This document shows, one piece after another, positions 21,475 through 46,607 of a stretch of 64,000 bases of DNA. The DNA comes from an uncultured Gammaproteobacteria bacterium (lineage in GTDB: Bacteria; Patescibacteriota; Patescibacteriia; SG8-24), in assembly GCA_964491475.1 (NCBI GenBank), contig CAZBFO010000001.1, forward strand, positions 263,538 through 327,537. Direction: 5' to 3'. Position numbers and translations under genes: made by a program. The notes under the pieces were generated by a model. The model saw only the letters and a list, made by a program, of their open reading frames with translations. It was not told where the DNA came from and searched no databases. Positions within the stretch are counted from its first letter, which is position 1. Every line of letters begins with the position of its first letter.

Positions 21475-21485
21475 CGCCTCTCCAT

Positions 21486-21824
21486 ATGAAAAGCGCAACT
21501 CTCAAAAGCTACTCCGTCGGACTGGTCGCCTCGGTCGGCCTGACCTTGGCCGCATACTTCCTGGTGGTCAATCAGGTGCTTTCCGGCCGCCAACTTACGC
21601 ACGTCATCCTGGCGATGGCCGTGGCGCAGCTGGTGGTGCAGATGGTCTACTTCCTCGGCGCCGAATCGCGCGACCGCTGGAACTTGAGCACGTTCCTGCT
21701 GACGCTGGGCCTGGTGCTGATCGTGGTGGTCGGCTCCCTGTGGATCATGGATCACCTCAACGTGGCCATGTCCGGCTCGCAGCCCAAGATGATGGAATAC
21801 ATCGACAGCCAGCAGGGCTTCTAA
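21486..21824 (+). CDS. cyoD: cytochrome bo3 ubiquinol oxidase subunit IV
   Basis: 112 aa, 3 TM, position in operon. Confidence 0.75.
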   Translation: MKSATLKSYSVGLVASVGLTLAAYFLVVNQVLSGRQLTHVILAMAVAQLVVQMVYFLGAESRDRWNLSTFLLTLGLVLIVVVGSLWIMDHLNVAMSGSQPKMMEYIDSQQGF

Positions 21825-21835
21825 ACGCGAACCGG

Positions 21836-22708
21836 ATGTCTTTCAAGAACTACTACCGCCTTGCCAAGCCCGGCATCGTCTACGGCAACCTGGTTCCGGT
21901 CATCGGCGCCTTCCTCCTGGCGTCGCACGGGCAGGTGCGCCCCGTCACTTTCACGGCCACGCTCGCGGGCATCGCGCTGCTGATGGGCTCGTCGTGCGTG
22001 TTCAACAACGTCATCGACCGCGACATCGACGCCAAGATGAACCGCACCAAGAACCGCGCCACCGTCACAGGGCAGATTTCGGTTCGCGCGGCGCTGCTGT
22101 ACGGCACCGTCCTCGGCGCCGTCGGCCTGGCCTTGCTTTTGCCGTACGCCAACTTCACCGCCGCCGCAGTCGGCGCCGTCGGCTTTTTCTTTTACGTGGT
22201 GCTGTACAGCATGTGGGCCAAGCGCCATACCGTCTGGGCTACCGAAATCGGCAGCGTCGCCGGGGCCGTGCCGCCGGTGGTAGGCTACGTGGCCGTCACC
22301 GACCGTCTCGACCTGGCCGCCGTGCTCCTGTTCGCCCTGATGGTCGCCTGGCAGATGCCCCACTTTTACGGCATCGCCATCCGCCTCGCCGACGACTACG
22401 CGGCCGCCAAAATCCCCGCCCTGCCACTCGCGCGCGGCCTGCGTGCCGCCAAGGTGCGGATGACCGGCTATATCGTCGCCTTCATCGTCGCTGCTTCCCT
22501 GCTGACGGTGCTCGGCTACACCGGCTACGTCTACCTGGCCGTAGTGCTGCTGTTCGGCCTGGCTTGGCTGCGCCTGTGCCTGCTGGGGTTCAGCATTCCC
22601 GATCAGGACAAGGCAAACGCGCCTTGGGCAAGGCGCGTGTTCCTGTTCTCGCTGTGGGTGCTTTTGGCGACGTTCGCCGCCATGGGCCTTTCTCCGTGGC
22701 TGCCCTAA
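21836..22708 (+). CDS. cyoE: protoheme IX farnesyltransferase (heme O synthase)
   Basis: UbiA-family polytopic protein with NxxxDxxxD (NNVIDRDID) motif. Start at the MSFKNYY Met (track ORF starts 32 codons upstream, overlapping cyoD). Confidence 0.85.
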   Translation: MSFKNYYRLAKPGIVYGNLVPVIGAFLLASHGQVRPVTFTATLAGIALLMGSSCVFNNVIDRDIDAKMNRTKNRATVTGQISVRAALLYGTVLGAVGLALLLPYANFTAAAVGAVGFFFYVVLYSMWAKRHTVWATEIGSVAGAVPPVVGYVAVTDRLDLAAVLLFALMVAWQMPHFYGIAIRLADDYAAAKIPALPLARGLRAAKVRMTGYIVAFIVAASLLTVLGYTGYVYLAVVLLFGLAWLRLCLLGFSIPDQDKANAPWARRVFLFSLWVLLATFAAMGLSPWLP

Positions 22709-27540: not shown

Positions 27541-27697
27541 AAATGTTTTCAGCACACCGATGATAACAGGGGGCGGAATAATTATCAAGCCGGCCGCGCG
27601 ACCCTCGCCGGGAGGTAGGAGGCAGCGTCAGTTATCCACAGCAGCACAATTTGACGCTCGGAAGGCGTGGGTGGTAAGACCGCCCACGCTTTTTGCT

Positions 27698-28897
27698 ATG
27701 TCGCTCTCCCCTCTCGAACAGGAACTTGCGCGGCCGGGCGGTCCGTCCATCATTACGGTGGTGGACATGCTGCTCACCGAGGGTTATCGGCGCCGCGCTT
27801 CGGACGTGCACGTGCATCCTGAACGCGGCGGGTTGCGCGTGCGCATGCGAGTCGACGGCGTCCTTTGGGACGCCTTTTGTTTTCCCAGCGCGATGCATGC
27901 GGAGATGATCGCGCGGCTGAAGGTGCTCGCGGGGATGCGCACCGATGAGCATGCCGCGGCGCAGGACGGCCGCATTCGGCGCGTGCTGGAAGACGGCACG
28001 GCGATTGACGTGCGCGTGTCAGTGCTGCCGACGCACTTCGGCGAGAACGCCGTGCTGCGGCTGCTGGACGTGTCTGCAGGGACGACCTCGCTGGCCGACC
28101 TTGGGTTCGGTGATTTCGACCGACGCAGGATGGAGGAAGCGATGACGAGGCCGCACGGCATGGTGCTGGTGACGGGGCCGACCGGCTCCGGAAAGACGAC
28201 CACGCTGCATGCGATGCTGCGGCTGCGCGCCGTGCGGACGGCTTCGCTGGTGACGCTCGAGGACCCGATCGAAAGGGAGCTGGACGGCGTGACGCAGATA
28301 CCGGTTCGCGAACGCAACGGACTGGGTTTCGCCGCGGGATTGCGGGCGGTGCTGCGGCAGGATCCGGACGTCATCATGGTCGGTGAAATCCGCGATGCGG
28401 AAACGGCCAACGTGGCCGTGAACGCGGCGCTGACCGGCCACCTGCTGCTGTCGACCTTGCACACCAATGACGCCGCCTCCGCGGTGATGCGGATGGCGGA
28501 GACGAAAGTAGAGCCGCACCTGCTCGCATCGACGCTGTCGATGGTAGTGGCGCAGCGGCTGGTCCGGCGGACGTGCCAGAACTGCGGCGAGGAACGGATG
28601 CCGAACGACATCGAGGCTCCGGCCCACGCGACGATCGGCCTGCTTCCGAACGAGCGCTGCCGCAAAGGACGGGGTTGCCGTTCGTGCAACGGCAGCGGCT
28701 ACATGGGACGGATTTGCCTGAACGAAACGCTGGCAGTCAGTGACGCGCTTCGAACGGCAATTTCACAAAAAGCGGCGCCGCGCGAAATCGCCGCAATCGC
28801 CATTGCGGAAGGCATGGTACCGATGCGCGAGGACGGCTTGCGGAAGGTTCGCGCCGGCCTGACCACGCCCGAGGAAATCATTCGCATAACCCCCTGA
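27698..28897 (+). CDS. type II secretion / type IV pilus assembly ATPase (GspE/PilB/ComGA family), short form without N1 domain
   Basis: ASDVHVHPE N2 motif, Walker A LVTGPTGSGKTTT, Asp/His boxes, C-terminal tetracysteine CQNCGEE...CRSCNGSG. Start uncertain (27560 or 27698). Confidence 0.85.
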   Translation: MSLSPLEQELARPGGPSIITVVDMLLTEGYRRRASDVHVHPERGGLRVRMRVDGVLWDAFCFPSAMHAEMIARLKVLAGMRTDEHAAAQDGRIRRVLEDGTAIDVRVSVLPTHFGENAVLRLLDVSAGTTSLADLGFGDFDRRRMEEAMTRPHGMVLVTGPTGSGKTTTLHAMLRLRAVRTASLVTLEDPIERELDGVTQIPVRERNGLGFAAGLRAVLRQDPDVIMVGEIRDAETANVAVNAALTGHLLLSTLHTNDAASAVMRMAETKVEPHLLASTLSMVVAQRLVRRTCQNCGEERMPNDIEAPAHATIGLLPNERCRKGRGCRSCNGSGYMGRICLNETLAVSDALRTAISQKAAPREIAAIAIAEGMVPMREDGLRKVRAGLTTPEEIIRITP

Positions 28898-28900
28898 ACC

Positions 28901-29938
28901 ATGCGCCTCCCCATCGTCGACCAGGCATTCTTCGCCCAACGGCTGGCATTCCTCATTGATGGCGGCATGCCGCTGCTCGAAGCGCTGGCCGTGACCGAAC
29001 GGCAGCTGCGTTCAAAAGATGCCAAGCGCGTCGCGGCAACGCTCCACGCGGAAGTGTCACGAGGACGATCGTTGGGCGACGGGATGCAGGCCACCGGCGC
29101 GTTCGGCGGCGCTGCCGTGACGTTGGTGAGCGTCGGGGAGAGGTGCGGAATGCTGGGACGGAACCTGCAACGGCTTGCGGACGAGATGAAGAAAGGCCGT
29201 CGGCTGCGCAGAAAGGTGCTTGGCGCAATGGCTTATCCGTGCATCGTGCTGACGGCAACCTGCGGCATCGTCGTCTACCTGCTGGCCTCGTTGCTGCCGA
29301 AGCTGTTGCCGATGTTCGCCGAGTTGCACGCCGAATTGCCGCCGAGCACGCGGGCAGTCATCGCCTTGTCGGGATTTTTGCGGAGATACGGGGCATGGAT
29401 GGCGGCCGCCGCCGTTACGGTTCTCGGTTGCATTCGGCTTTTGCGACTCCGCCCGCAAATGCGGCAACGATGCGAGCTGGCGCTGCTGCGCGTGCCGGCC
29501 ATCGGTCCCCTGCTCCGTGACCTGCAACTGGCCCGATTGGGCAGGTCCGTCGGGACGATGCTTTCAGGCGGACTCTCGCTGCGTGACGCCTGCGCCCTTG
29601 CGGCCGACCCGGGTGCGGGCGCGTACGACGCGCAGCTGCTGGCGATGGCCGAGGCCGTCAACGAGGGACGTTCCTTGTCCTCTCACCTGGCGACGCAGCC
29701 GAAGCTCTTCCCCGAAGCGTTTACGCAGTTGGTCGCGTCCGGAGAAGAGAGCGGCAAGCTGCCCGAAGCGTTCCTGTACCTGGCCGACCACTACGAGCGC
29801 GAGATTGACGAGTCTGCGGCCGGATTGTCCGCGACGCTGGAACCGGCGCTGATGCTGCTTACCGGCGCCGCGGTCGGATTCATCGCCATTGCCGTCATCT
29901 CGCCGATGTATTCCCTGACCCAATCGCTGCATGCGTGA
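28901..29938 (+). CDS. type II secretion / type IV pilus platform protein (GspF/PilC/ComGB family)
   Basis: 345 aa, T2SSF-like repeats with 3 TM segments, directly after the ATPase. Confidence 0.8.
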   Translation: MRLPIVDQAFFAQRLAFLIDGGMPLLEALAVTERQLRSKDAKRVAATLHAEVSRGRSLGDGMQATGAFGGAAVTLVSVGERCGMLGRNLQRLADEMKKGRRLRRKVLGAMAYPCIVLTATCGIVVYLLASLLPKLLPMFAELHAELPPSTRAVIALSGFLRRYGAWMAAAAVTVLGCIRLLRLRPQMRQRCELALLRVPAIGPLLRDLQLARLGRSVGTMLSGGLSLRDACALAADPGAGAYDAQLLAMAEAVNEGRSLSSHLATQPKLFPEAFTQLVASGEESGKLPEAFLYLADHYEREIDESAAGLSATLEPALMLLTGAAVGFIAIAVISPMYSLTQSLHA

Positions 29939-31409
29939 TGCCGGCTTCGCTTCGATCGAAATCCTGCTGACGATGACGCTGATCGGCGTCGCCTTCACGG
30001 GCGCGTTGCTTACGGAACAAGGCATGGCACGTTGGCTGCGCTCGACGCGCGAATCGATCGATGACCTCGCCGTCGCGGCCTCGGCAGCCGAAGCGGCGAA
30101 GGCCGACGGGGAACGCGATTTCTTTCATCTGGTCTCGGCGTTCGCGCCGGACCGACCGGACTGCGCTGCACAGGACTCCTGCTCGGGCGTGCGCAGGGTC
30201 GTCACGGACGCATCGGCCTGCACGAAGGGAGTCGAAACGCGCGCGGTACGGCAAAATTTTGACCGACCCGCGCGGGAAACCGCACTTCCGGCAATCGTGA
30301 CGGACGCGGCAGAGATGGCGGCCCTCGGCGACGACTGCTCCACGGCCTTTCCTGCCGGAAACTGGTCCGCGCCAGCCGTTGCAGGGACGGCCGTGACGGG
30401 ACCCGGAAATGCCACGGGCATCGACGCCTACCAAGGCAAGGCCTATGTGACCTTCGACGCACCGCCGTATTTGCGGATTTTTGCGAACGGCTCCGAGAGA
30501 GCGTACTCGAACGGTTTTGTCGGCGGAGGTCCCTTTAACGCCGTCGACGTCGCGCGTGATCCCGTGACCGGTCGCGTCTACGCGTATGCGGCCGCCGTCT
30601 CGCCGCAGCTGCAAATCATCGACGTGACGGATGCAGACGCGCCGAAGACCGTATCAAGCGCTCCGCTTGCGGGCGTGTCGCTCAAGGGCGCACAGGCGCA
30701 AGGATGGCGGGTGCGCGTGTACGGAGGAGTGGCGTACATGACGGCGCGCTACATGATTTCTTCGAATCCGGAGCTGCATCTGTTCGACGTGCGCGACCCC
30801 GCAAGCCCGCGCGAGCGCGGCACGGGTCGCAAGACCGGCACGTCGGCATACGACATCTTGCTGCACGAACAATCCGTACCCAGCTTGGACGGCGCCCGCC
30901 GACGACTGGCCTATTTCGCGACGACCGCGCCGGGCGGCGAGCTGCAAGTGCTCGACGTCACCGACCCCGAGAGGATGACGCCATTGGCAACGTGCGACCT
31001 GCCGGGCGCGTATCAGGCCACGGCTTTGGCATTGCTCGGCACCACGCTGTACGTGGGGCGCGACAACGTGCCAGGTGGAGGCGAGGACCTGTATGCCTTC
31101 GACGCCTCGGACCCGGCCTCGGCGGCATTTTGCGTCCCGATCGCAAAGACGGACATCGGTACGGACGGTTACAGCCGGCACGTGCAGGCGCTCCGTGCTG
31201 CCGGGAAGTACCTTTTCGTGGCCACCAACAACACCACCAACGCGCACGGACAGATGCAAGTGCGCAGCGCCGATCCTGCCACCGGTCTTTCGCTGCTGGG
31301 AACGTACTCGCTGCCGGGCATGACCGAAAACGGGTCGGACCTGGAGGGCGGCTTTCTGTATGCCGCCGCCGCAACGGCACCGCAACTCACCGTAATCACC
31401 GGCTCATGA
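29931..31409 (+). CDS. large minor pseudopilin fused to an LVIVD-repeat beta-propeller
   Basis: Prepilin N-terminus MRDAGFASIEILLTMTLIG (E+5 present). Repeated LQIIDVTDADAP / LHLFDVRDPASP / LQVLDVTDPERM / LYAFDASDPASA motifs spaced about 40-50 aa. Confidence 0.7.
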   Translation: MRDAGFASIEILLTMTLIGVAFTGALLTEQGMARWLRSTRESIDDLAVAASAAEAAKADGERDFFHLVSAFAPDRPDCAAQDSCSGVRRVVTDASACTKGVETRAVRQNFDRPARETALPAIVTDAAEMAALGDDCSTAFPAGNWSAPAVAGTAVTGPGNATGIDAYQGKAYVTFDAPPYLRIFANGSERAYSNGFVGGGPFNAVDVARDPVTGRVYAYAAAVSPQLQIIDVTDADAPKTVSSAPLAGVSLKGAQAQGWRVRVYGGVAYMTARYMISSNPELHLFDVRDPASPRERGTGRKTGTSAYDILLHEQSVPSLDGARRRLAYFATTAPGGELQVLDVTDPERMTPLATCDLPGAYQATALALLGTTLYVGRDNVPGGGEDLYAFDASDPASAAFCVPIAKTDIGTDGYSRHVQALRAAGKYLFVATNNTTNAHGQMQVRSADPATGLSLLGTYSLPGMTENGSDLEGGFLYAAAATAPQLTVITGS

Positions 31410-31909
31410 ACCAGCGTGGCTTTACCCTCATCGAAAGCATCGTGTACCTGGCGCTGGCGGGCGTGCTGCTGGGCGCGCTCTTGCCGACGGCGTACGGGCT
31501 GGCCTCGGCCATGCAGCATGACAAGAAGGCCGCCGAGGCCCTCGACGAGGCGCTGCTCGTCGACCGGCGGCTGCATTGGGCGTTGGCAGATGCGGCGGAA
31601 GTGTCGGTGCCGTCGCCGCAACGACTCGATGTAACCGAAACGGACGGCGGCTTCGTTCATTTTGCAGTCGCCGATTCGAAGCTGACCGTGGCGGAAAACG
31701 AGGCATCGCCGGCGACCGCCCTTAACGTCGGCATGCCGATATCTGCGGTTTCATTCTCCTTACGGCCATTTTCGACGCCTGCGGATCGAACTGCGGTCGC
31801 GGTCCCCGAAAACCTGACGGTCGATTTCACGCTTGGTGACGCGCCGTTCACCTTTCATTATCCGCTGCCAAAACGCGGCAGCCTCCCGACCGCATGCTTT
31901 TCCCGATGA
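31406..31909 (+). CDS. minor pseudopilin
   Basis: MNQRGFTLIESIVYLALAG prepilin motif; ATGA overlap with the preceding gene. Embedded in an alternative-frame track ORF, which I reject. Confidence 0.7.
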   Translation: MNQRGFTLIESIVYLALAGVLLGALLPTAYGLASAMQHDKKAAEALDEALLVDRRLHWALADAAEVSVPSPQRLDVTETDGGFVHFAVADSKLTVAENEASPATALNVGMPISAVSFSLRPFSTPADRTAVAVPENLTVDFTLGDAPFTFHYPLPKRGSLPTACFSR

Positions 31910-32355
31910 CCCGCGCTCACGGATCGACAGATGAACGCGGATTCGCCCTGCTGGTAACGGTCATTCTCACGGCCGCGCTGCTGGCGAGCGCGGGCGTCGC
32001 CGCCAGCGTGGCGACCTCCCGCGCCTCGGCGCAATCGTCCCTGATGCTGTGGCGTTCGCAGGCGCGGTCGCTGGCCGACGGCTGCGCGGAGGCGGCCGCC
32101 GCACGACTGCTTGGCAACCCGGCATACGATGGCGGAGAGGAAGTGATCCTGCCGACGGGTTCCTGTCGCGTCACGTCCGTCAGGCATGACGACCCGTCGC
32201 CGGGTACGACCGCCGTTGAAGCCACGGGCAAAACGCACGGAGCATCCGCGTCGGTGACCGTCATCGGAGAATCTCGCGCGCGTTGCCTTTCTTCGTCCCC
32301 CGCCCCGTTCGGGATGAGATTGCGTTCTTGGATTGAAGTCCCCGCGCATGAGTGA
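31906..32355 (+). CDS. minor pseudopilin (GspK/ComGG-like, lacks E+5)
   Basis: MTRAHGSTDERGFALLVTVILTAALLA; ATGA overlap with the preceding gene. Confidence 0.65.
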   Translation: MTRAHGSTDERGFALLVTVILTAALLASAGVAASVATSRASAQSSLMLWRSQARSLADGCAEAAAARLLGNPAYDGGEEVILPTGSCRVTSVRHDDPSPGTTAVEATGKTHGASASVTVIGESRARCLSSSPAPFGMRLRSWIEVPAHE

Positions 32356-32457
32356 CTGCCTCGTCACCATCGCCGCCTTGCACCGTCGCGTCCGCGGCCC
32401 GCCGCCGTCCGCGCGAGTCGCATGCTTCGTCTCATTACTCATGCTCACCTTTTTCCC

Positions 32458-32970
32458 ATGCGCCACGTCCTCCGCCACCGCCGCCCATCTGCAAACAAGG
32501 GATTCACGCTGATCGAAATGCTGGTCGTAATGGGCATCATCGCCGCGCTGGCCGGCATGGTGATCACGGCGGTCAATCCCGCCAAGCAGTTCGCTCAAGC
32601 TCGCAATGCCGAGCGCCAGTCTGGCGTCACGGCGATTCTGAACGCCATCGGCCAGCGCATGGCCGACAACAAGGGCACTTTCGCCGGGACTTTCAGCGTC
32701 GGTGGCACCGGCTATACCTGCCCGACGCTGCCGAACAGCGCCGCCGCAATCGCGGCACAGGGCGGCGCGGACCTGTCGTGTCTCACGCCCACGTACCTGT
32801 CTTCGCAGATTCCCGTCGATCCGAACGGCGGAACCTGGACCGGACCTCTCGCCTACGCCAGCGGCTACACCGTCGCGGCCGACGCGCTCGGCCGAGTGAC
32901 GATCTGCGCGCCGAACGCCGCAACCGAGACCGCAGTACCAGGTGCGACACCGATCTGCCAAACGCGTTAG
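32458..32970 (+). CDS. type IV major pilin / pseudopilin (ComGC-like)
   Basis: Leader MRHVLRHRRPSANKG then FTLIEMLVVMGIIAALAGMV; Cys pair near C-terminus. Start could also be 32422. Confidence 0.75.
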   Translation: MRHVLRHRRPSANKGFTLIEMLVVMGIIAALAGMVITAVNPAKQFAQARNAERQSGVTAILNAIGQRMADNKGTFAGTFSVGGTGYTCPTLPNSAAAIAAQGGADLSCLTPTYLSSQIPVDPNGGTWTGPLAYASGYTVAADALGRVTICAPNAATETAVPGATPICQTR

Positions 32971-33016: not shown

Positions 33017-33049
33017 GACCGCCTCGGCATGCCGAGGCGGTCGTTTTTT
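33017..33049 (+). terminator. rho-independent terminator after the pilin operon
   Basis: gaccgcctcggc-at-gccgaggcggtc hairpin plus TTTTTT. Confidence 0.6.
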
Positions 33050-33056
33050 CACGTCA

Positions 33057-34871
33057 TCACCCCACCACTTTCCCTCCAAAGGCCTCCAGCACGTTCCCGC
33101 TGAACGTCGGTTCTTTCGCAGCGGACGCGCCGGCCGGAGCAAAGTTCTCCTCTTGCCCGATGCCGGACTTGGTTTCGAGCAGCACGCCCTCCACGCGCAC
33201 GGTCTTGCCGAGCACGTCGCACAGGACTTCCTCGACCAGGCGGCGGTTCTTGTCGTGGTTGAGCTTGTCACGGTGAAAGGCGAAGTCGAAACCCACGCGC
33301 ACCACCGTGCCGACCACCTCCGTGACCGTGCCCAGCGCCAGCACGTACAGGAGCGCCGCGCTTTTCTCGCCCGACTTCTCCATGAACGGCTTCCAGATGG
33401 ATTTGACGTGCTCGACGGTGGTCACCGGTGCGCCTGTACCGCGATCGACTGCCAGGGCGGCGGCTTCCGCAGATTCGTCGACGATGGGATTCAAGATGGG
33501 CGCCTCGACGGTAGCCTCGAGCGCGGCGGCGACCGCGGCGGCTTGCGCGGCCGCGTCGGCTGACGGCGCTTCCACGGGAACCGACGGTTCGGCTGCCGCA
33601 GAAGCCTCGGCCAGCACGGTGGCCACCGTGACCTTGGCGGCAGGTTCGGCGTTCTTTTTGGGAACCGCTGCCGCAGACGGAGTCTGCTTCGGTGCGGGGC
33701 CGCTCGACGACGCTCCCCCGGCAGGACGTTGCGGCGCGCTGGGCGCGATGGCCGGCGCGGACGTGCTCACCTTGGTGAGCTGCTCGCAGATGCGCACCAC
33801 GGCCAGCTCCAATGGCAGCTGTGCCGGGTGCGCGGATTTTATCTCGCGGCGCTTTTCCATCAGCGTCTCGATGGCGAAGACCAGTTCGGCGGTGCCGGCC
33901 AGCATGGCCCAGCCCTCCAGCTGCTTCTTGGACTGCTCGTCCATCTCGGCCGAGAATACGTCGGGGTTGCCGCTCATCTTGGCCAGCATGGTTTTGCGCA
34001 GCAGTTCGATGGCGTCGGTGGCGAACTGGTCCAAGTCGGTGCCGCCCTCCATGCAATCGCCGACGATCATGACGGCCGAGCGGGCGTCGTGGTGCAGCAA
34101 GGCGTCCACGAAGTTGGCCAGCGCCTGCGCGTCGGAACGCGGCAGCACCACCAAGGCTTCGTCGTAGGTGACGCGCTTGCCGTCGCCCATGGTCAGCACC
34201 TTGCCGAGCAGGCTTTCGGCGTCACGGAGCGACCCGTCGGCGTGACGGGCGATGTCTTCGAGCGTGCGGCGGTCCACCTTGACCTTTTCCTTTTCTGCCA
34301 AACGGTGCAGGCGGTCGACCAGGTCGTTGAACGGGATCTTGCGGAAGTCGAAACGCTGGCAGCGCGAGAGGATGGTCTGCGGCACCTTGTGCAGTTCGGT
34401 GGTGGCCAGGATGAACACCACGTGCGCCGGCGGCTCTTCCAACGTCTTGAGCAAGGCGTTGAAGGCCTCGGTGGTCAGCATGTGGACTTCGTCGATGATG
34501 AAGACCTTGTAGGCCAGCCGCGCGGGCGAAAAGCGGGCGTTCTCGATGATGTTCTCGCGGACGGCGTCGATGCCGCGGTGCGAGGCGGCGTCGATCTCGA
34601 TGACGTCGAGCGAGCGGCCTTCCAAAATGGACTGGCAGCTTTCGCACTCGCCGCACGGTTCGCCGGCGGAGGTGTCGCGCTTTTCGCAGTTCACGGCGCG
34701 GCTGAAGATGCGGGCGGTGGTGGTCTTGCCGACGCCGCGCGGGCCGGAAAACAGGTAGGCGTGGGCGATTTTCTTGCTGGCAATCTCAAAGGCCAGCGTG
34801 ACCTTCACGTGGTTCTGGCCGGAGACTTCGGCCCAGGCCTGCGGGCGGTATTTTCGGTACAGGGTCGCCAT
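33057..34871 (-). CDS. dnaX: DNA polymerase III subunit gamma/tau
   Basis: LFSGPRGVGKTT P-loop, Zn-finger CxxCxxC (CGECESC), DEVHML box, Pro/Ala-rich linker and C-terminal tau-like region. Start at the MATLYRKYRP Met. Confidence 0.9.
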   Translation of the reverse strand: MATLYRKYRPQAWAEVSGQNHVKVTLAFEIASKKIAHAYLFSGPRGVGKTTTARIFSRAVNCEKRDTSAGEPCGECESCQSILEGRSLDVIEIDAASHRGIDAVRENIIENARFSPARLAYKVFIIDEVHMLTTEAFNALLKTLEEPPAHVVFILATTELHKVPQTILSRCQRFDFRKIPFNDLVDRLHRLAEKEKVKVDRRTLEDIARHADGSLRDAESLLGKVLTMGDGKRVTYDEALVVLPRSDAQALANFVDALLHHDARSAVMIVGDCMEGGTDLDQFATDAIELLRKTMLAKMSGNPDVFSAEMDEQSKKQLEGWAMLAGTAELVFAIETLMEKRREIKSAHPAQLPLELAVVRICEQLTKVSTSAPAIAPSAPQRPAGGASSSGPAPKQTPSAAAVPKKNAEPAAKVTVATVLAEASAAAEPSVPVEAPSADAAAQAAAVAAALEATVEAPILNPIVDESAEAAALAVDRGTGAPVTTVEHVKSIWKPFMEKSGEKSAALLYVLALGTVTEVVGTVVRVGFDFAFHRDKLNHDKNRRLVEEVLCDVLGKTVRVEGVLLETKSGIGQEENFAPAGASAAKEPTFSGNVLEAFGGKVVG

Positions 34872-35052
34872 GCTGCTAGTGTGCCATTTTTTGAGAGGCT
34901 TACCAATCGTCAAAAGGCCGACAAACCGGACTTTTGCACCGGGACGTTCATCCCCTTTTCGTCCCCAAACCGGGCAGGCAAAAGTCGTCAAATCGGGACG
35001 AGAAACGGAACGAAAAACCGCCTCGGACGCGCCGGGCGGTTTCGCGGTCCTA

Positions 35053-35937
35053 CTAGATGACCGGACTCTGCTTGATGATGTTCTCGACCGCTGCCCAGCG
35101 GGACGGCGCGTTCTTGGGGACCAGCAGGATGACTTCGTCTTCCGGCTCGCCCTTGAAGTAGGTGACGCTGGCCTTGATGATGGTCCAGCGGCGGCTGTCC
35201 TGGGTGGCGTAGTATTCGCCGTTGGTGGCGTCGAAGCCGAGCGTGGCCACCACGCGGGTGCGCTCGATGGGGCCGATCTGCTTGTAGATGAACGATCCCT
35301 TGGTGGTGATGGTCAGCTTGAGCAGGTCGCCTTCGACCAGCTTGGACTTGGAAGCGTAGTTCGGCGGCACGGTGTAGATCTTGCCGTCGGAACCGACCAT
35401 GCTCTGGCCGTCGAAGACGCCCTCGATGACGCGGCCGTCCACCTGGCGGATGCCGTTCAGTTCGGCTTCGCGGGCCATGGCCGGGTCGACCGACTCGGCG
35501 GTGGCGGTGAAAGTCGACGTGGCGCCGGCCGGGGCGTCATCCTCGAGCAGGCGGATGATGTTGGCGATGTTGGTCTCCATGGCGCGCAGCGCCTTGGCGA
35601 TGATGCGCACCTTGTTGGCATGGATGGCGGCAGCGTCCTGCGCGGGAGCCTTTTCTGCACCTTCGGCCGCAGTGTCGGGCCGCGCAGCGACGACGGGCAA
35701 CGCGATGGCGGCGGTTTCCATGCCCGGTGCGACGGACTCGCTTGGCCAGACCGAAGCGGTCGGGGCGGCGGCCTGTTCGGCAGCCGCCGGTGCCGGCGAG
35801 GCTGCCGGAGCGTCAGCGGGCGGTTCCTGCACCGTCGTTTCGGAAGACTTATGACGCAAGGAGTAAAGGAAATCGGTCATCGGCGTCGAGGACTGGTCGT
35901 CCATAGTGGCGATTTTTATGTTTATTACGTCGGCCAT
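35053..35937 (-). CDS. hypothetical protein (Ala/Pro-rich N-terminal half, conserved-looking C-terminal domain)
   Basis: 294-aa ORF upstream of dnaX on the same strand; no motif recognised. Confidence 0.5.
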   Translation of the reverse strand: MADVINIKIATMDDQSSTPMTDFLYSLRHKSSETTVQEPPADAPAASPAPAAAEQAAAPTASVWPSESVAPGMETAAIALPVVAARPDTAAEGAEKAPAQDAAAIHANKVRIIAKALRAMETNIANIIRLLEDDAPAGATSTFTATAESVDPAMAREAELNGIRQVDGRVIEGVFDGQSMVGSDGKIYTVPPNYASKSKLVEGDLLKLTITTKGSFIYKQIGPIERTRVVATLGFDATNGEYYATQDSRRWTIIKASVTYFKGEPEDEVILLVPKNAPSRWAAVENIIKQSPVI

Positions 35938-36002: not shown

Positions 36003-38564
36003 CTATTTGGCCTGCTGCGGGGCCGCCGGCATCGCCTTGAGCTGGGTGCGCTCCAGAATCTCCTGCTCCACGATGGCCCGGTCGCGACCGAATTTGAGTC
36101 GGGAGAGCTGCTTCAGCGCCTCGCCGATGCGCTTGTCGCCGCGGATGGGCATCGGCGCCTTGAAGTTGAACGGCCGGCTGGCTTGGCTGCTGATGAGCAG
36201 CTTGGAGTTCCAGCTGAACTTTTCCACGTTGGTGAGGTCGAGCGCCGAGAACACCGGCGCGAATTCCTTCTCGAGCACCTCGCCGTCCTCGATGCCGATG
36301 CGGCCGATGAGCATGTTGCCCACGTTGCCCAGCACGGCGTCACGGATTTCGGTGTCGCCCTTGGGCGCCAGCTGACCCATGTACTGGTGGGCGATGATCA
36401 GGCCCAGGCGGTACTTACGGGCTTCGGAAAGAATCGTGGCGATCGACGGCGTGATGAAGTTCTGGAACTCGTCGATGTACAGGAAGAAGTCCTTGCGATC
36501 CTTCTCCGGCATGTTGGCACGGCTCATTGCCGCCATCTGCAGCTTGGTGACGATGATCAGGCCGAGCAGGTTGGCATTGATGTCGCCGATCTTTCCCTTG
36601 GACAGGTTCACCAGGAAAATCTTGCGGTTGTCCATGACCTGACTGAAGTCAAAGGCCGACTTCTGCTGGCCGATGATGTTGCGCATCATGGCATTCTCCA
36701 CGAAGCGGCCCACCTTGGAGATGAGGTAGCCGAGCATTTCGGACTTGTGGAAGTCGGAAGTCTTGTCCATTTCGTTCTCCCAGAACGAGCGCACCACCGG
36801 GTCGGTGACCTTCTTGCGCCACTCCTTTTGGAAATCGGCATCGGAGACCAGGCGCGGAATCTCGGCGATGGTGCCGGGGTTGTCCTTGTCGCTCATCAGC
36901 GTGAGCATGTAGTTGCGCATCTGGTGCTCGAACATCGGGCCGATCATCTCGGCGCCGAACAGCTTGTAGAAGATGGCCACCATTTCGCCGCAGACGAAGT
37001 CCTTCATCTCGTCGCTGGGAGCCTCGATCATGTTCAGCGCCACGGGGCGATCCAAGTCGGACGGATCGAAGACGATGACGTCGTCGGCACGTTCCTTGGG
37101 GATGCAGCTCAAAACGTTTTCCACCAGATCGCCGTGCGGATCGATGACCGCCACGCCGTCGCCGCGCTTGATGTCCTGGACGATCAGGTTGGCGATGTAT
37201 TCCGACTTGCCGGAACCCGATTTGCCGATGATGTACATGTGACGCAGGCGGTCTTCGGTCTTGATGTACACCTGGGTCTTCTCGCCGCGGTACTCCACGA
37301 AGCCCAAATGCAGTCCGTCCTTGGGAAGGTTGGTCGGCGGCGGCGCCTTGCGCGAGGTCAGCCAGCGGATGTTCGGCGTTTCGGTGGACGACAGCGGGAA
37401 GTGGCACAGGCTGGCCATCTCCTCGCCGCTCATGATCATCCGTTTCTTCTCGTCGAAGTGGCGGAAGATGAAGTCCTTGATGATCTTGTTGCCGGCGGCG
37501 CCCTTGACGATCTGGTTGCCGTACTGCGGAATGCTGTACTGCGAGAAGGCGTTGATGATGTTGTTGAGGTAGTTGTTGGCGGCCATGGGGGTGGCGGCCG
37601 AAGCCACCACCCGGATGACCACGTCCAGGCCGTACTTGGCGGCCTTGTCGTCGATGGCCTTGACCATCTCCTCTTCGGCCGCGCTCATGCGGCGCATTTC
37701 CTTCTTGTCGTCCTTCTTGCTTGCGACCATCGCGCCTGCCGTGGACAGCAGACTCTTGCCGCTCATGGCCTCCTTGAGCGTCTTGCCTTCGTTCATGCCT
37801 TTCACCACGGACAGCGGCAGCGTCCGCCATTCCTTCTTGGCCGAGCGCACGATGATCTGGATGGCGGCACCGTCGGTCTTTTCGACTTTGGCCAGCGCGT
37901 TGGTAAGGCTGTTGAGCGGATCGGATTCCTGTTTCTTGTAGGTCTTGATGGGGAAGAAGTACTCGCGCTTGAAAATCATGCGTGCGCCCACCGCCGTACC
38001 CTGCGGCTTGAAGATGTCGTAGTCGGACACCGGCTCGATCTGCGCCAGCGGAAACTGACCATGTATTTGCTGCTCCACGAACTCCTTGAGGTGGTGCGGC
38101 GCGGCCACGTAGAACGACACCAGACCGTCCTTGGCGACCATCTCGAACGAGACATGGTCGGCACGACCGACCATCCAGGCCCTGAACCCGCGCTCGGCGG
38201 TCAGGCCGCCGATCGAGGCGTAGACGTTCTCCATGATGGCGATCTTCTCCTGGACCTGTTGCAAGGACTTTTCCTGCTGGCCGGATTCGCCCTTTTCGGA
38301 CTGTTCCTTGGGAACGGTCACCAGCATCACTTCCATCTTGAAGGCCACGTCGGACTGGTACTTGGCGCGCATGCGCGAACGCACGATCGCAAAGGCGATC
38401 CAGACGGCCAGAAGCGCGAACAGCGCCAGACCGACGAGGATGCCGGCGGGTCCGGTCGCGGACGACAACGCAGACGACGCATTGAGGTTTTTCACGAAGG
38501 CGAGTTGGAACAGCGCGAATGGCATGGGCGTCCGGTTAATCCTCGAAGACCCCGTCGGCGGCAC
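36003..38564 (-). CDS. membrane-anchored P-loop ATPase of the FtsK-HerA/VirB4 superfamily (TraC/VirB4- or TraG-like)
   Basis: N-terminal TM helix. Walker A IIGKSGSGKSEYIANLIV, Walker B FFLYIDEFQNF, arginine-finger-like ARKYRLGLIIAHQYMGQL (RKxxG...xQ pattern of HerA/VirB4). 853 aa. Confidence 0.6.
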   Translation of the reverse strand: MPPTGSSRINRTPMPFALFQLAFVKNLNASSALSSATGPAGILVGLALFALLAVWIAFAIVRSRMRAKYQSDVAFKMEVMLVTVPKEQSEKGESGQQEKSLQQVQEKIAIMENVYASIGGLTAERGFRAWMVGRADHVSFEMVAKDGLVSFYVAAPHHLKEFVEQQIHGQFPLAQIEPVSDYDIFKPQGTAVGARMIFKREYFFPIKTYKKQESDPLNSLTNALAKVEKTDGAAIQIIVRSAKKEWRTLPLSVVKGMNEGKTLKEAMSGKSLLSTAGAMVASKKDDKKEMRRMSAAEEEMVKAIDDKAAKYGLDVVIRVVASAATPMAANNYLNNIINAFSQYSIPQYGNQIVKGAAGNKIIKDFIFRHFDEKKRMIMSGEEMASLCHFPLSSTETPNIRWLTSRKAPPPTNLPKDGLHLGFVEYRGEKTQVYIKTEDRLRHMYIIGKSGSGKSEYIANLIVQDIKRGDGVAVIDPHGDLVENVLSCIPKERADDVIVFDPSDLDRPVALNMIEAPSDEMKDFVCGEMVAIFYKLFGAEMIGPMFEHQMRNYMLTLMSDKDNPGTIAEIPRLVSDADFQKEWRKKVTDPVVRSFWENEMDKTSDFHKSEMLGYLISKVGRFVENAMMRNIIGQQKSAFDFSQVMDNRKIFLVNLSKGKIGDINANLLGLIIVTKLQMAAMSRANMPEKDRKDFFLYIDEFQNFITPSIATILSEARKYRLGLIIAHQYMGQLAPKGDTEIRDAVLGNVGNMLIGRIGIEDGEVLEKEFAPVFSALDLTNVEKFSWNSKLLISSQASRPFNFKAPMPIRGDKRIGEALKQLSRLKFGRDRAIVEQEILERTQLKAMPAAPQQAK

Positions 38565-39048
38565 GGCGCTCCTTGACGATGGCCATGACGTTGTCGGTCT
38601 TGATCTTGCCTTCCTGCAGCAGAAACCACTGGTTAACGCGGGGAATGGTGCGGAGCCAGCGGACGATCACCGAATGGAAGGCGTTGGGGCGGGTCTTCTT
38701 CTGGTCGATCAGGGTGCGGACCTCCTCGGCTGCCTTTTCGCCTTCGGCGCGGAACTTGGCGCGAGCGTCCTTTGGCATGGCGTAGTACGCATCCCACAGG
38801 TTCTCTTCGAGCACGCGTTCCACTTTCATCCGCGTTTCGTCCTTGGTCACCGGTGCGGGGGCGGAAGCGGGCGCCGGGGCGGCCGCTGGCGTCGGAGCAG
38901 GCGTCTGGGAAGGCTCGGGTGCACGAACCTCGGCGCTCGGGCTGGGCGCCTCCCTGTTCGGCTCTGATTCCTTCGCGGTTTCCGGGGAACGCGGCGCCTC
39001 GGGCGGCTTTTCCATGCCCATTCCGGCTCCCATTTCGCCGTTCATCAT
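38536..39048 (-). CDS. hypothetical protein (Pro/Ala-rich N-terminal, globular C-terminal), overlaps start of the ATPase gene
   Basis: 170-aa ORF whose 3' end overlaps the ATPase start by about 29 nt, suggesting coupling. Confidence 0.5.
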   Translation of the reverse strand: MMNGEMGAGMGMEKPPEAPRSPETAKESEPNREAPSPSAEVRAPEPSQTPAPTPAAAPAPASAPAPVTKDETRMKVERVLEENLWDAYYAMPKDARAKFRAEGEKAAEEVRTLIDQKKTRPNAFHSVIVRWLRTIPRVNQWFLLQEGKIKTDNVMAIVKERRAADGVFED

Positions 39049-43151: not shown

Positions 43152-46100
43152 TCATAGCTGATTGCAATACACGTACTGTCCACCGCTCCATACCTGCGTC
43201 ACGAAGTAGCCGTTGGGGCAAGCGCAGGAATTGCCCGGTGCGCAGTACACCCAACCGTAACCGGCACCGTCACTGTTGCCCGAGGCAACCAGGTCGTAGT
43301 AGACGGTCGCGCCCCATGAGGTGATGCCGCCATAGGCATAAATGTTACCGCTCGCCGACATCCAACTGGAAGAGGAGAGCGTACTCACACTCGTGGCGCC
43401 GGCGCTAAGACTGCCGGAAATGGACGCGTTACCGCTGTTGTTGAGCGTGCCGGATCCAAGGAAGGAATACGGACCGCTTCCGTAGACGCCGGCGTAGGTT
43501 CCCGTGCCGTAGACGCCATACGAACCGCCATTGCCGTACACGCCGTAGGTGCCGCCAGAACCCTGACCGTAAACGCCCGTGGAAGTACCTGAACCGATGA
43601 CGCCGTAGAATCCGGAACCCTGCACGCCGTAAGTTTGGCCGGTTCCCGAAACGCCGATACCTCCCCCCGCATTGACGGTGCCCTGAACGCCGATCCAGCT
43701 GCTCGTACCGAACAAACCGTAATTTGAACCGCTGCCGTAGACGCCGTAGGTGCCGCCAGTGCCGTTGACGCCGTATGATCCGCCGTTGCCCGCGACGCCC
43801 GTGGTGGAACCGACGCCCGCGACGCCATAGGAACCGTTACCGTAGAGGCCGTAATTTCCTCCTTGTCCCCAGACGCCGTAGGTGTTACCGCTGCCATACA
43901 TGCCGGTGCCGATACCGGTGCCGTACACGCCAAAAGTGCCGTTACCGTACACGCCGTAGGTGCCGCCGTTGCCGTAGACGCCGTAGGTGCCGGAAGAGCT
44001 GAAGCTGCCACCGGTCGTAGAACCGCTTCCATAGACACCTTGTGTTCCGCCAGCGAACCAGCCGCCCCAATTAGGTCCGGTACCGTAGACGCCGATACCC
44101 GCACCGCCCGTCGAAGTACCGGAGACGCCGTAGCTGGGACCTTCGCCATAGACGCCATAGGCGCTGCCGTAACCGCGAACGCCCATGTTGCTGCTGGGAG
44201 AGACGCCCGCGCCGAGATTGGACTGGACGTAAGCGTCACCGAGCACCATCAGCTTTTGGCCCGATGCCGAGCCGCCGATGCCGACGGTCGTGCCGTTATC
44301 GACGATCTGCGAATTGCCTATGCTCGAGGCGGCAGTGAACTTCGGTACGTAGTTGGCGGTGCCGCTGCCCGTCACGCCTGCCACATTCGTGTCCGTAATC
44401 GTGACCGCGCCGGTCGAGCCGGAGAGGCTGATGCCCGAACCGGCCGTGAGCGACGTCACGCCCGTGTTCGAGAAGGTCACCGCGCCGGTAGCGCCGGACA
44501 CGCCGATGCCGGTGCCGGCCGTGGCGGAGGTGACGCCGGTGTTGGAAACGACGACCGCGCCCGTGGTGGGAGCGACGGAAATGCCAGATCCGGATCCGGA
44601 GACGGAAGTGACCGGCGCAGAGGCAGCTGTCGTCCAAGTGCCGTTGCCGGAAGCGTCAGAAGTGAGCACCTTGCCCGCGCCAGCGCCCGTGGCCATCAGG
44701 AAGCCGGTCATCTTGGCGGTGCCGTTGACGTCGAGTTTCTGCGTCGGGACGGCGACGCCGAGACCGAGGTTGCCGGACAAGTAGCTCTGGCCGCCGGCAG
44801 AATAGAGGGCGTACTTGTTGGTGCCGACGCCGATGGAGTCGATGTAGATGCCGTAGTTATTGGTGAGGGTTCCGGACGGCGTACCGCTCTGGTAAACGCG
44901 CAAGCCGTAGGCGTTGGTGACGTTGGCGGGGTTGCCGAAGTACAGGTTCGAGTACATGCCGTACAGGTTGGTGATGGTACCTGAACCGCCGTTCGAGGCG
45001 GCACCGTAAACGCCGGCCATGTCCGTCACCGCGCCGGAGCCGCTGCGGTACACTTCGCCGTTGACCGCGTAGGCGGACTGCGTCGTTCCGCTATGACCGA
45101 CGACCACGTTGGCCTCGATGCCGCTCAACCAGCTGGTGAAGTTGGTCGCTCCGGCAGAGCTGGTATCGACGTCGGCGTAAATGGCATCGAACCAGCTGGC
45201 CGGGCTGGCCGACGGAACCGGCTTGATGATGTTGGACATGCCCAGGCCGATGTTGCCGGTCAGGTTCTCCGAGATGTTCGTGACGTAATTGGTGCTGGTG
45301 CTCGCGGTCGCGCCGAAGGCCGAATGGCCGGCGACGGTCAGCTTGCCGCTGGTGGAAGTGTCGCCAGCCGAGGTGACCTTGAACTGCGAGGTGGGACCGA
45401 CGGAGAGCAGGGCGGTAGGCGCGGCATTGCCGATACCGACGTTGGTGCCGTCATCGAACACCAGCGAATTGCCGATGGCGCTGGCAGAGGTGAACTTGGC
45501 GTGGTAATTGGTGGTGCCGCTGCCCGTGATGCCGGACTGCGTGGTCCAGGTGCCGTTGCCGGAGGCATCGGAAACCAGCACCTTGCCCGCGCCCGCGCCG
45601 GTCGTCAGCTGCAAGCCGGTCATCTTGGCGGTGCCGTTGACATCAAGAAGAGTGCCCGGTGTCGAGGTGCCGATGCCGACGTAGCCGTTTTGATCGATCC
45701 TGACGCGCTCGGCGCGGGTCGTCGAGCCGTTGGGGGTGGTTTCAAGCGTGAGCAAGGTGCCATGCGCGGCATCGGTCTGATTTTCCGCAGCGCGGATGAT
45801 GAAGGCGCCGTTGCTCAATGACGAGAACCCCGTGGTGCCATAGGCCCGGCCGCTGAAGAACGCCAGGGCGTCACCGGACTGCGCGGCGGTAGGCGCGGCG
45901 GTGGTTCCACGCGCGCGGCGTCCCGTGAAGTTCGAGGCAACCGCCGAGCCGTAGGAGTCGACGTTCGCCGCCACGGGGTCGACGGTGCCGACGATGTTCA
46001 GGCTGCCGGTCGGCGTAGAAGTACCGATGCCCAAGCTGCCGTACAAGCCCATGTACATGCTGGTGCCGCCCGAACCCCAGTTGCCGACGTTCAGCGTGGT

Positions 46101-46607
46101 CACGCCGGAGCCGTCGACGCGGATGGCCTTGCCGCTGGAGAGGTAGGCGTCGCCGCCGCTCGACTTGAGGTCGCCAGTGACGCTGATGTAGCCGGTCTGC
46201 GCGGACGACGGGCTGATGAGGACGTAAGGGTTGTCGCAGGTGTCGGCGCAGACGTTCCAGGTGCTGCCGGTGGGGCAGGTGCGGTTAGTGACGCAAGAGC
46301 CGGAGCTGGAACATTGCGTCGTGCCTGACGGGCACACGCAGCTCAACGACGAGCAGTCATACACCTGCGTGGACGAAGTGCACGGACGAGAATCCGATTG
46401 GCACGAGGCGTCAGACGCCCGGTACAGCAGGCCGCCGAAGCAGGTGGTGCCGCCGCCCGAGGTGGGACAGGCGCAGGAGGCCTGCGTGGAGTTGTAGGGG
46501 CAGGTCTGGGCGGATGCGGCAACGGGCAGCAAGGTCGAACCAGCTGCGATGAGCAAAGAAGCAACGACACTAACGAAGACTGCGGCTCGAGAACGGGCCA
46601 TACGCAT
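43152..46607 (-). CDS. giant secreted fibre-like protein 1: Cys-rich N-domain, tail-fibre-like GIGTxxP...LDVNG modules, Gly/Tyr nonapeptide array, Cys-containing C-terminal cap
   Basis: 1151 aa. Signal peptide MRMARSRAAVFVSVVASLLIAAGSTLLPVAASA; about 16 Cys in residues 35-125. Repeated VGIGTSTPGTLLDVNGTAKMTG-type motifs and an about 200-aa run of xYGVYGxGx. C-terminus YCAPGNSCACPNGYFVTQVWSGGQYVYCNQL. Paralog of the 47405..49816 gene. Confidence 0.75.
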   Translation of the reverse strand: MRMARSRAAVFVSVVASLLIAAGSTLLPVAASAQTCPYNSTQASCACPTSGGGTTCFGGLLYRASDASCQSDSRPCTSSTQVYDCSSLSCVCPSGTTQCSSSGSCVTNRTCPTGSTWNVCADTCDNPYVLISPSSAQTGYISVTGDLKSSGGDAYLSSGKAIRVDGSGVTTLNVGNWGSGGTSMYMGLYGSLGIGTSTPTGSLNIVGTVDPVAANVDSYGSAVASNFTGRRARGTTAAPTAAQSGDALAFFSGRAYGTTGFSSLSNGAFIIRAAENQTDAAHGTLLTLETTPNGSTTRAERVRIDQNGYVGIGTSTPGTLLDVNGTAKMTGLQLTTGAGAGKVLVSDASGNGTWTTQSGITGSGTTNYHAKFTSASAIGNSLVFDDGTNVGIGNAAPTALLSVGPTSQFKVTSAGDTSTSGKLTVAGHSAFGATASTSTNYVTNISENLTGNIGLGMSNIIKPVPSASPASWFDAIYADVDTSSAGATNFTSWLSGIEANVVVGHSGTTQSAYAVNGEVYRSGSGAVTDMAGVYGAASNGGSGTITNLYGMYSNLYFGNPANVTNAYGLRVYQSGTPSGTLTNNYGIYIDSIGVGTNKYALYSAGGQSYLSGNLGLGVAVPTQKLDVNGTAKMTGFLMATGAGAGKVLTSDASGNGTWTTAASAPVTSVSGSGSGISVAPTTGAVVVSNTGVTSATAGTGIGVSGATGAVTFSNTGVTSLTAGSGISLSGSTGAVTITDTNVAGVTGSGTANYVPKFTAASSIGNSQIVDNGTTVGIGGSASGQKLMVLGDAYVQSNLGAGVSPSSNMGVRGYGSAYGVYGEGPSYGVSGTSTGGAGIGVYGTGPNWGGWFAGGTQGVYGSGSTTGGSFSSSGTYGVYGNGGTYGVYGNGTFGVYGTGIGTGMYGSGNTYGVWGQGGNYGLYGNGSYGVAGVGSTTGVAGNGGSYGVNGTGGTYGVYGSGSNYGLFGTSSWIGVQGTVNAGGGIGVSGTGQTYGVQGSGFYGVIGSGTSTGVYGQGSGGTYGVYGNGGSYGVYGTGTYAGVYGSGPYSFLGSGTLNNSGNASISGSLSAGATSVSTLSSSSWMSASGNIYAYGGITSWGATVYYDLVASGNSDGAGYGWVYCAPGNSCACPNGYFVTQVWSGGQYVYCNQL

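Follow-up and report, generated by a model that had tools for sequence, protein, structure and literature searches.

A type IV coupling protein-like ATPase with a DUF8128 domain and neighbouring partner genes on a Patescibacterial chromosome

Results

An ATPase gene preceded and followed by small genes

The gene studied here encodes a membrane-anchored ATPase resembling type IV coupling proteins (T4CPs) and lies in a 64,000-nt stretch of DNA, called the window below, from an uncultured bacterium that GTDB assigns to the Patescibacteriota (Patescibacteriia; SG8-24); the window covers positions 263,538 to 327,537 of contig CAZBFO010000001.1 (assembly GCA_964491475.1), and all coordinates are those of the window. 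The ATPase gene occupies 36003..38525 on the minus strand and encodes 840 amino acids (aa). On the same strand, it is preceded by a gene for a 170-aa protein (38536..39048, the upstream partner) and followed by a gene for a 294-aa protein (35053..35937, the candidate downstream partner; 283 aa in its database version), beyond which lies dnaX.

The longest reading of the minus-strand open reading frame (ORF), 36003..38564, comprises 853 codons, opens at GTG 38564 and has codon bias of the coding type (GC3 0.88, GC2 0.37). An earlier description made from the letters alone (the sequence-only reading) had accordingly reported an 853-aa protein whose start was overlapped by a 170-aa Pro/Ala-rich protein. 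The 853-codon ORF does exist, but ATG 38525 was taken as the start, because a 100% identical database protein has 840 aa and the N-termini of close homologues align to the Met encoded there. The upstream ORF lies directly ahead of the ATPase gene as described, but with ATG 38525 the two do not overlap; instead, a 10-nt spacer follows the stop codon of the upstream gene (38536-38538), and GAGGA is found immediately ahead of that stop codon. In related loci the partner stop and the ATPase start are mostly tight, from a 4-nt overlap to a gap of a few nt. The proposed existence of a coupled small partner gene holds.

A motor domain of the T4CP type

Residues 403-830 (36036..37319, minus strand) form a T4CP-type P-loop motor domain, within which Pfam PF02534 spans residues 433-747. 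An alignment of 31 homologues indicated that the three motifs highlighted by the sequence-only reading, GKSGSGKS, FFLYIDEF and RKYRLGLIIAHQ, are all invariant or nearly so. In Walker A, GKSGSGKS (37203..37226, minus strand; residues 447-454 in the 853-aa reading), the residues G434, G437, G439 and K440 of the 840-aa numbering are invariant; in Walker B, FFLYIDE (36468..36488, minus strand), F680, L682, Y683, D685 and E686 are; and in the sensor-type RKYRLGLIIAHQ motif on the strand after Walker B (36384..36419, minus strand), R703, K704, Y705, H713 and Q714 are. The assignment of the protein to the P-loop translocases of the FtsK-HerA/VirB4 superfamily holds.

Four Pfam families match the protein above their gathering cut-offs, namely DUF87, TrwB_AAD_bind, T4SS-DNA_transf and TraG-D_C, with 33.3 bits for PF02534 (cut-off 20.1), 34.7 for PF10412 (20.5) and 26.8 for PF12696 (22). 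A profile search against PDB sequences recovered TrwB (2.6e-6), DotL (5.5e-5) and, weakly, HerA, with no other matches. In a Foldseek search of the PDB, TrwB (E 1e-11, TMt ~0.6), Cagβ and HerA matched over the motor only. The AlphaFold2 (AF2) model of the full protein (pLDDT 82.5) comprises a transmembrane (TM) helix, an α/β N-domain and a RecA-like domain carrying an all-α insertion of eight consecutive helices between Walker A and Walker B (36630..37013, minus strand; ~residues 505-632). In this model the insertion occupies the site of the T4CP all-α domain, of which it may be the equivalent, and in relatives PF10412 aligns across the all-α region (e.g., residues 414-727 of P0374).

HerA was also tried as an identity for the ATPase and was rejected: NF040937 scored 20.6 bits against 800 and NF040819 17.3 against 970, and the neighbouring genes are not nucleases, among which NurA would be expected.

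A single membrane helix and a cytoplasmic DUF8128 domain

A single N-terminal TM helix with N-out/C-in orientation was predicted at ~residues 27-49 (38379..38447, minus strand). The Kyte-Doolittle profile contains one hydrophobic stretch, residues 19-52, with four Arg/Lys residues just C-terminal and one N-terminal of it, and the AF2 model has a long helix at residues 26-62. Membrane anchoring by one N-terminal helix, as proposed from the sequence, agrees with this single hydrophobic segment. The ~350-aa region that follows had been regarded as possibly extracytoplasmic; it is cytoplasmic by topology, because there is one TM helix, the Arg/Lys residues lie C-terminal of it, and the ATPase must be cytoplasmic.

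This cytoplasmic region, residues 52-402 (37320..38372, minus strand), is a DUF8128 domain (PF26449), a family precomputed on all homologues and unmentioned in the literature searched. The AF2 model of the N-domain alone (pLDDT 85, pTM 0.85) was compared with the PDB, where only TrwK/VirB4 chains gave significant matches (13 matches, E 7e-6 to 4e-3, TMq 0.43-0.49) and the lower ranks were unrelated. Against BFVD, the same model matched phage G gp156 and proteins of phages JL and Slash and, more weakly, VirB4-like gp155 and a 'Component of type IV transporter system'. By sequence, profile searches against PDB sequences and per-member Pfam scans of DUF8128 versus VirB4 gave noise, PF03135 and TrwK remaining unmatched. 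Judging from the predicted models, DUF8128 probably has a fold like that of the VirB4 N-terminal domain.

Homologues lie beside relaxase genes in conjugative elements

Searches of plasmids and phages by tblastn recovered homologues that are collinear with the ATPase over both domains. On the Bacillus subtilis plasmid NZ_OX419568.1, WP_213380696.1 (913 aa, 23% identity over 747 columns, E 3e-33) is encoded directly upstream of genes for a replication-relaxation relaxase, TcpC, TcpE and an ATPase; no N-terminal TM segment was found within its first 100 residues. On the Streptomyces sp. BHT-5-2 replicon NZ_CP081497.1 the homologue is an unannotated 814-aa ORF, and the genes run from PrgI (VirB3-like) through VirB4 (AAA_10/P-loop_TraG/TraC), the homologue and Replic_Relax (E 3e-41) to an NlpC/P60+SLT hydrolase. 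In haloarchaeal plasmids the N-domain and the motor are adjacent ORFs beside a 'conjugal transfer protein'. On the Halomontanus plasmid NZ_CP135526.1 (locus L091, 6788-11033), for example, a 391-aa DUF8128 ORF overlaps the start of a 1,026-aa T4CP-like ATPase (WP_317175933.1 and WP_317175934.1), a naturally divided form of what is one fused protein in bacteria. In the jumbo Bacillus phage G (locus L092, 1943-6085), VirB4-like gp155 is paired with the homologue gp156, followed by an HNH endonuclease; related proteins were also seen in phages JL, Slash, SP-10 and Goe16.

A hidden Markov model (HMM) built from Patescibacterial DUF8128 alone matched all four of these homologues (Bacillus, Streptomyces, haloarchaeal and phage G) with E values of 5e-19 to 6e-35. 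Over the N-domain and the motor, the mobile-element homologues share 23-28% identity with the ATPase, and a full-length HMM matched them with E values of up to 2e-81. One class of conjugation systems in monoderms and archaea has DUF8128 joined to a T4CP motor as its coupling ATPase, in keeping with the published placement of Patescibacterial VirB4 inside MPF_FATA. These results demonstrated that the Patescibacterial ATPase descends from relaxase-adjacent coupling ATPases. The VirD4 of pLS20 was considered as the nearest plasmid relative and rejected, since it has two TM helices and the matching plasmid carries a different, Tcp-like gene set.

The same loci bear on the sequence-only reading's own view, in which the protein would be a divergent stand-alone VirB4-type ATPase energising the assembly of a pilus or secretion channel. 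The full-length Foldseek search of the PDB placed TrwK/VirB4 first (E 2e-14 over ~900 columns); in overall size and in its layout of two domains the protein is like VirB4, and the modelled N-domain matches only its counterpart in VirB4. A TM helix fused at the N-terminus also recalls VirB3-VirB4 fusions. However, the Pfam models of VirB4 type miss the ATPase: P-loop_TraG reached 13.2 bits (cut-off 25.8, E 0.035), AAA_10 and TraC_F_IV were absent even at E up to 10, and CagE_TrbE_VirB gave no match. The genuine VirB4 genes beside the homologues in Streptomyces and phage G are matched by AAA_10, P-loop_TraG and TraC_F_IV; the ATPase and VirB4 families thus occur side by side as separate partners. 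The sequence profiles that recovered TrwB and DotL from the PDB did not detect VirB4/TrwK, and most Patescibacteria already hold a bona fide VirB4. Among the models that the sequence-only reading had named for assigning the clade, DUF87 and T4SS-DNA_transf matched and AAA_10 and TraC_F_IV did not, and the VirB4 clade it had chosen was not upheld. By sequence, the ATPase is placed among the T4CPs (VirD4/TraD/TrwB-like) rather than with VirB4, and the VirB4-type interpretation is considered unlikely.

A fixed housekeeping neighbourhood in Patescibacteria

All 120 homologues listed come from Patescibacteria metagenomes, are 54-80% identical over the full length and carry DUF8128 ahead of the T4CP domains; the suggested link to reduced, uncultivated lineages is confirmed in that sense. 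The gene neighbourhood was compared in 83 loci, namely 80 GTDB species representatives, mostly labelled Uhr-, Magasanik- or Falkowbacteria or Parcubacteria, and three earlier loci, all probed with the window's own proteins rather than with relaxase or mating-pair formation (MPF) models. A recurrent block in the order cysS–(corA)–partner–ATPase–partner–dnaX was found in the species-representative loci. The upstream partner lies directly upstream in 80/83 loci, the downstream protein is present in 59/83, dnaX lies downstream in 68/83 and cysS upstream in 59/83. The median identity was 53.7% for the ATPase and 41.6% for CysS, with the ATPase value higher in 42/44 loci; the ATPase is under stronger purifying selection than cysS.

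In the window, dnaX (DNA polymerase III τ/γ; 33057..34991, minus strand; Pfam families taken from the identical locus L001) is the last gene of the same-strand array. The array is closed by a strong, terminator-like bidirectional hairpin at 33017..33042, where dnaX and the last pilin-like gene converge; it has a G+C-rich 11-bp stem with 9 G-C pairs and flanking T-runs on both strands; no comparable hairpin was found on the minus strand between 39048 and 33057. Five distant members of the DUF8128 family have other housekeeping neighbours (L31/RF1, PheST, GatCAB, SecDF and GyrBA), with dnaX adjoining none of them. A functional link to dnaX or cysS was rejected, the synteny holding at clade level only, and dnaX is probably a neighbour through synteny rather than function.

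This variation bears on whether the protein is instead an FtsK/SpoIIIE-like translocase acting in segregation or division, an alternative also raised by the sequence-only reading. T4CPs and FtsK are related, and the strong conservation and housekeeping neighbours (dnaX here, gyrBA in L088) would suit such a role. However, the partner genes stay the same from clade to clade, unlike the dnaX and gyr neighbours, which counts against it; PF01580 reached only 17.5 bits, below its cut-off of 24, and in the Walker A region only; and the protein has no multi-TM N-terminus and, among its Pfam matches, no γ domain or other DNA-binding family. The term 'FtsK' also occurs in two TM7x transcriptome papers, so at least some Patescibacteria may possess a separate FtsK. 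We regard an FtsK-type translocase as very unlikely.

The window's genes include those for SecDF, PurA, a quinol oxidase, a histidine kinase, PilB/PilC/pilins, DnaX, CorA, CysS, DnaK/J and YidC. In a Pfam scan covering 26 of its ~54 ORFs, VirB4, VirB6, VirB8, a relaxase, an integrase and a hydrolase were not found, and no homologue of VirB3, VirB6 or VirB8 was seen in the window ORFs examined. A survey of all ~54 called ORFs for Walker A motifs and TM segments identified PilB, DnaX and an AAA+ protein as the only other large P-loop proteins. Within this coverage, the reported absence of neighbouring type IV secretion system (T4SS) and conjugation genes holds.

The window content and the locus comparison also bear on the interpretation of the ATPase as a canonical conjugative T4CP of an integrative conjugative element (ICE) whose other genes were missed. 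The plasmid and phage homologues do belong to conjugation modules, and the protein scores as TraG/VirD4-type, which was one half of the alternative that the sequence-only reading had set against itself; the other half, an ICE context, was not found, and a conserved housekeeping neighbourhood stands in its place. The window yielded none of the genes expected of such an element, the same housekeeping flanks recur in 80 species, the conservation exceeds that of CysS, and there is no composition shift, the G+C content being 57-67% across the window with no anomaly at the ATPase locus. An undetected ICE is therefore considered highly improbable. The Patescibacterial gene is a domesticated one, located on the chromosome without a surrounding ICE or a nearby relaxase, and its fixed housekeeping neighbourhood is consistent with vertical inheritance.

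Two partner families

The N-terminal half of the upstream partner is variable, of low complexity and rich in Pro, Ala and Glu, and its C-terminal ~95 aa are conserved, with WLxxIPGVNxFFLEQEAKIKTD at the end. This partner evolves fast; a word-index protein search returned only 10 homologues, and it took tblastn in the syntenic loci to detect it there. In the candidate downstream partner, a variable N-terminus is followed by a single conserved segment of helix-like character and by a conserved C-terminal domain of ~125 aa (about 35068-35436) containing EGVFDG..DGK.Y.VPxNYASKSKLVEGD.LKLTI. Its family, described as β-rich, has >7,900 homologues, none with a Pfam domain. Neither partner has a TM segment, and no Pfam or PDB relatives were detected for either.

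The association extends beyond the close relatives. In the five distant relatives a small ORF precedes the ATPase in every case (5/5), although these small ORFs are not detectably homologous to the upstream partner, and the downstream-partner family adjoins the distant DUF8128 ATPase in three of the five (L084, L086 and L087). At least one lineage-specific partner, and probably a second, goes with the ATPase.

Long DUF8128 variants of 1,045-1,584 aa were also observed, which carry C-terminal tails of 300-600 aa that are of low complexity and rich in Ser, Pro, Gln and acidic residues. In the two variants read, P0334 (L085, 6001-10269) and P0337 (L088, 7001-10351), the tail ends in a conserved PGE[IV]YID[DE][DE]G.VH.G. 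No downstream-partner homologue is adjacent in L085 or L088, and the long tail might replace that partner. By analogy, such tails recall the adaptor-binding tails of TraD and DotL.

Other features of the window

A type IV pilus block lies at 27560-32970 on the plus strand, with a PilB-like T2SSE ATPase, a PilC-like T2SSF protein, a 492-aa protein and three ORFs that each have a TM segment at the N-terminus, the prepilin-type GFTLIE motif being present in one or more of these. A functional link between the ATPase and these genes, ~5 kb away, was rejected, since PilB adjoins the ATPase in 0/83 loci and PilC in 1/83.

Haem-copper quinol/cytochrome oxidase genes were found at 18012-22708 on the plus strand, comprising a subunit II-like ORF with COX_ARM, COX1, a 4-TM ORF and a UbiA/haem O synthase-like gene. 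The chromosome around them otherwise looks Patescibacterial. Patescibacteria usually lack a respiratory chain. On the minus strand, a SecD-type 718-aa ORF with two PpiC-type peptidyl-prolyl isomerase (rotamase) domains (2268-4424) is followed by SecF (1356-2246). A Gly/Ser/Thr-rich repeat protein of 1,151 aa, encoded at 43152-46607 on the minus strand, has a hydrophobic segment at the N-terminus and is likely located at the surface. The AAA+ ATPase encoded on the same strand at 13122-14948 (608 aa; PF00004 plus lid) lacks TM segments, and neither a peptidase nor any further domain could be recognised in it. Two further large ORFs, 47405-49816 (minus strand, 803 aa) and 6519-8324 (plus strand, 601 aa), have no Pfam match.

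Discussion

The ATPase is most likely a domesticated hexameric translocase of the T4CP type, either coupled to the chromosomal T4SS of its lineage or exapted for DNA import. Taken as a whole, the explanation that we favour, with a confidence modestly above even, is a domesticated ATPase of the T4CP subfamily working with two partners, for which coupling to a T4SS is the leading function. The protein would form a membrane-tethered hexameric ring that threads a polymer, most likely DNA, through its pore upon ATP hydrolysis; the VirB4-like N-domain would dock the ring onto a membrane channel, and the partners could serve as regulator and/or substrate adaptor. The leading candidate for the channel is the unlinked chromosomal T4SS of the MPF_FATA type, which most Patescibacteria carry, usually without a T4CP gene of its own. 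In a published survey of 3,035 Patescibacteria genomes, VirB4 is reported in 2,417 genomes, relaxases in 103, and T4CP homologues in 2,918, as 5,713 copies of which only 148 lie near virB4 (PMC12102498). Wang et al. (2023) described the T4SS of Southlakia epibionticum as lacking recognisable coupling or relaxase proteins.

Several observations weigh against this explanation. In the survey, T4CP homologues occur in more genomes (96%) than VirB4 (80%), and the T4CP homologue of S. epibionticum, which may or may not belong to the DUF8128 subfamily, was non-essential in transposon sequencing although the T4SS was essential (PMC12102498); both findings speak against a T4SS role that is obligatory. 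The 83 related loci, probed with the window's own proteins, show housekeeping neighbours where linkage to relaxase or MPF genes would be expected of a T4CP. The protein has one hydrophobic segment only, not the two-TM-helix anchor of canonical T4CPs, and none of the NCBIfam T4CP equivalog cut-offs was reached, the best being SXT_TraD (51.5 bits vs 366) and conju_CD1115 (37.5 vs 250); the top NCBIfam matches, TraD, CedD and a VirD4-like family, were all far under their cut-offs. The VirB4-like fold of the N-domain comes from predicted models with TM-scores of 0.43-0.49 and without sequence support. HMMs of the two partners found no counterpart in the plasmid and phage loci, and the roles proposed for the partners are guesses. 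The substrate, the oligomeric state and the contact with a T4SS are likewise features that we infer.

With T4SS coupling ranked first, T4SS-independent DNA import comes a close second: a T4CP-derived ring would have been exapted to draw DNA into the cytoplasm for natural transformation or nucleotide scavenging, together with ComEC and a type IV pilus or alone, by analogy with archaeal CedB/CedD or the ComFA of Gram-positive bacteria. We consider this possible, although on balance rather unlikely. The combination of a TM helix, a VirB4 N-terminal-domain-like domain and an ATPase is also the architecture of CedD (PMC11868833), and a weak match to the NCBIfam CedD model was obtained (E 8e-10). 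The family is more widely distributed than VirB4 and, in the one organism tested, dispensable for epibiotic growth, and ΔcomEC is also viable. T4SS loci of the ABY1 class often include comF, recG and radA, and the strong conservation suits a lineage-wide physiological role. Exaptation of the T4CP homologues was considered possible by Quiñonero-Coronel et al. (2025; PMC12102498). Against import, the match to CedD is confined to ~66 residues around Walker A, at 37.9 bits against a cut-off of 600 (CedB, 14.6 vs 700), the pilus genes are not conserved neighbours, no linkage to comEC, comF or dprA was seen in any locus inspected, and the demonstrated relatives export DNA rather than import it.

A broader proposal can be made tentatively, namely that the ATPase and two Patescibacteria-specific partners are a self-contained, lineage-wide module for the translocation of DNA or another polymer that is independent of the T4SS, a core import or export motor possibly used in nucleic-acid acquisition; the family may in addition preserve an intermediate between VirB4 and VirD4, with a motor of the T4CP type and an N-domain retained from the VirB4 type. 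If so, a conjugation coupling protein would have been turned into a core motor, possibly providing auxotrophic epibionts with one route to nucleic acid.

Patescibacteria make up a large share of bacterial diversity, and how they acquire what they cannot make is an unresolved problem. In the one genetically tractable species the T4SS is essential, with no recognised coupling protein or relaxase. The DUF8128 ATPase family is the obvious missing or repurposed component, with its reported presence in 96% of genomes, its conservation beyond that of an aminoacyl-tRNA synthetase and its ties to two partner families. Through its descent, its VirB4-like N-domain and its fixed partners, the vague "orphan T4CP" becomes a module of three genes that can be tested, its domains being delimited and its motifs open to mutation, and the family bears on the divergence of VirB4 and VirD4.

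The nearest published description is by Quiñonero-Coronel et al. (2025), who reported orphan T4CP homologues in Patescibacteria: matches to VirD4-type HMMs, ~2 per genome in 96% of genomes and rarely near virB4 (PMC12102498). They are almost certainly the same protein set as the DUF8128 ATPases, or a large part of it; the existence of such orphans is already published. The text consulted gives no account of a DUF8128/VirB4-like N-domain, a single TM helix, two conserved partners, housekeeping synteny or a link to relaxase-adjacent T4CPs of Bacillus, Streptomyces and haloarchaeal elements. No description of how the domains are arranged, of the relationship to particular conjugative T4CPs, of the module of three genes or of the degree of conservation was found in the literature searched.

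CedD of Saccharolobus, which is essential for DNA import, combines a TM helix, a VirB4 N-terminal-domain-like domain and a HerA/VirB4-type ATPase and, like the present protein, is chromosomal and lies outside conjugative plasmids (PMC11868833). The Ced system differs in being archaeal and DNA-damage-induced, with a motor classed with the HerA clade rather than with the T4CPs (PMC11868833). VirB4, represented by TrwK of R388 (PDB 7o42, 7o43 and 8rtd), has a similar two-domain layout, and its N-terminal domain is matched by the predicted DUF8128 fold; however, there is no sequence-level similarity to VirB4 in either ATPase domain, and genuine VirB4 genes coexist beside the homologues.

Canonical T4CPs (TrwB of R388, VirD4, TraD, DotL and Cagβ) share with the ATPase the P-loop motor with an inserted helical domain and are the best sequence and fold matches for residues ~403-830, at ~14-15% identity in structural alignments. 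Compared with them, the ATPase has one TM helix rather than two, an extra 350-aa cytoplasmic N-domain and no relaxosome partner. In gene arrangement, CagZ/Cagβ may be compared with the upstream partner and the ATPase. Cagβ with its small helical regulator CagZ (PDB 8dol) offers a loose precedent for the upstream partner. The DUF8128 ATPases of mobile elements sit beside VirB4 and a Replic_Relax relaxase, whereas the Patescibacterial gene is chromosomal, has no relaxase beside it and is accompanied by two partners unmatched in those elements; even so, they resemble the Patescibacterial ATPase in the Walker A, Walker B and sensor motifs, the all-α insertion, the DUF8128 domain and collinear homology.

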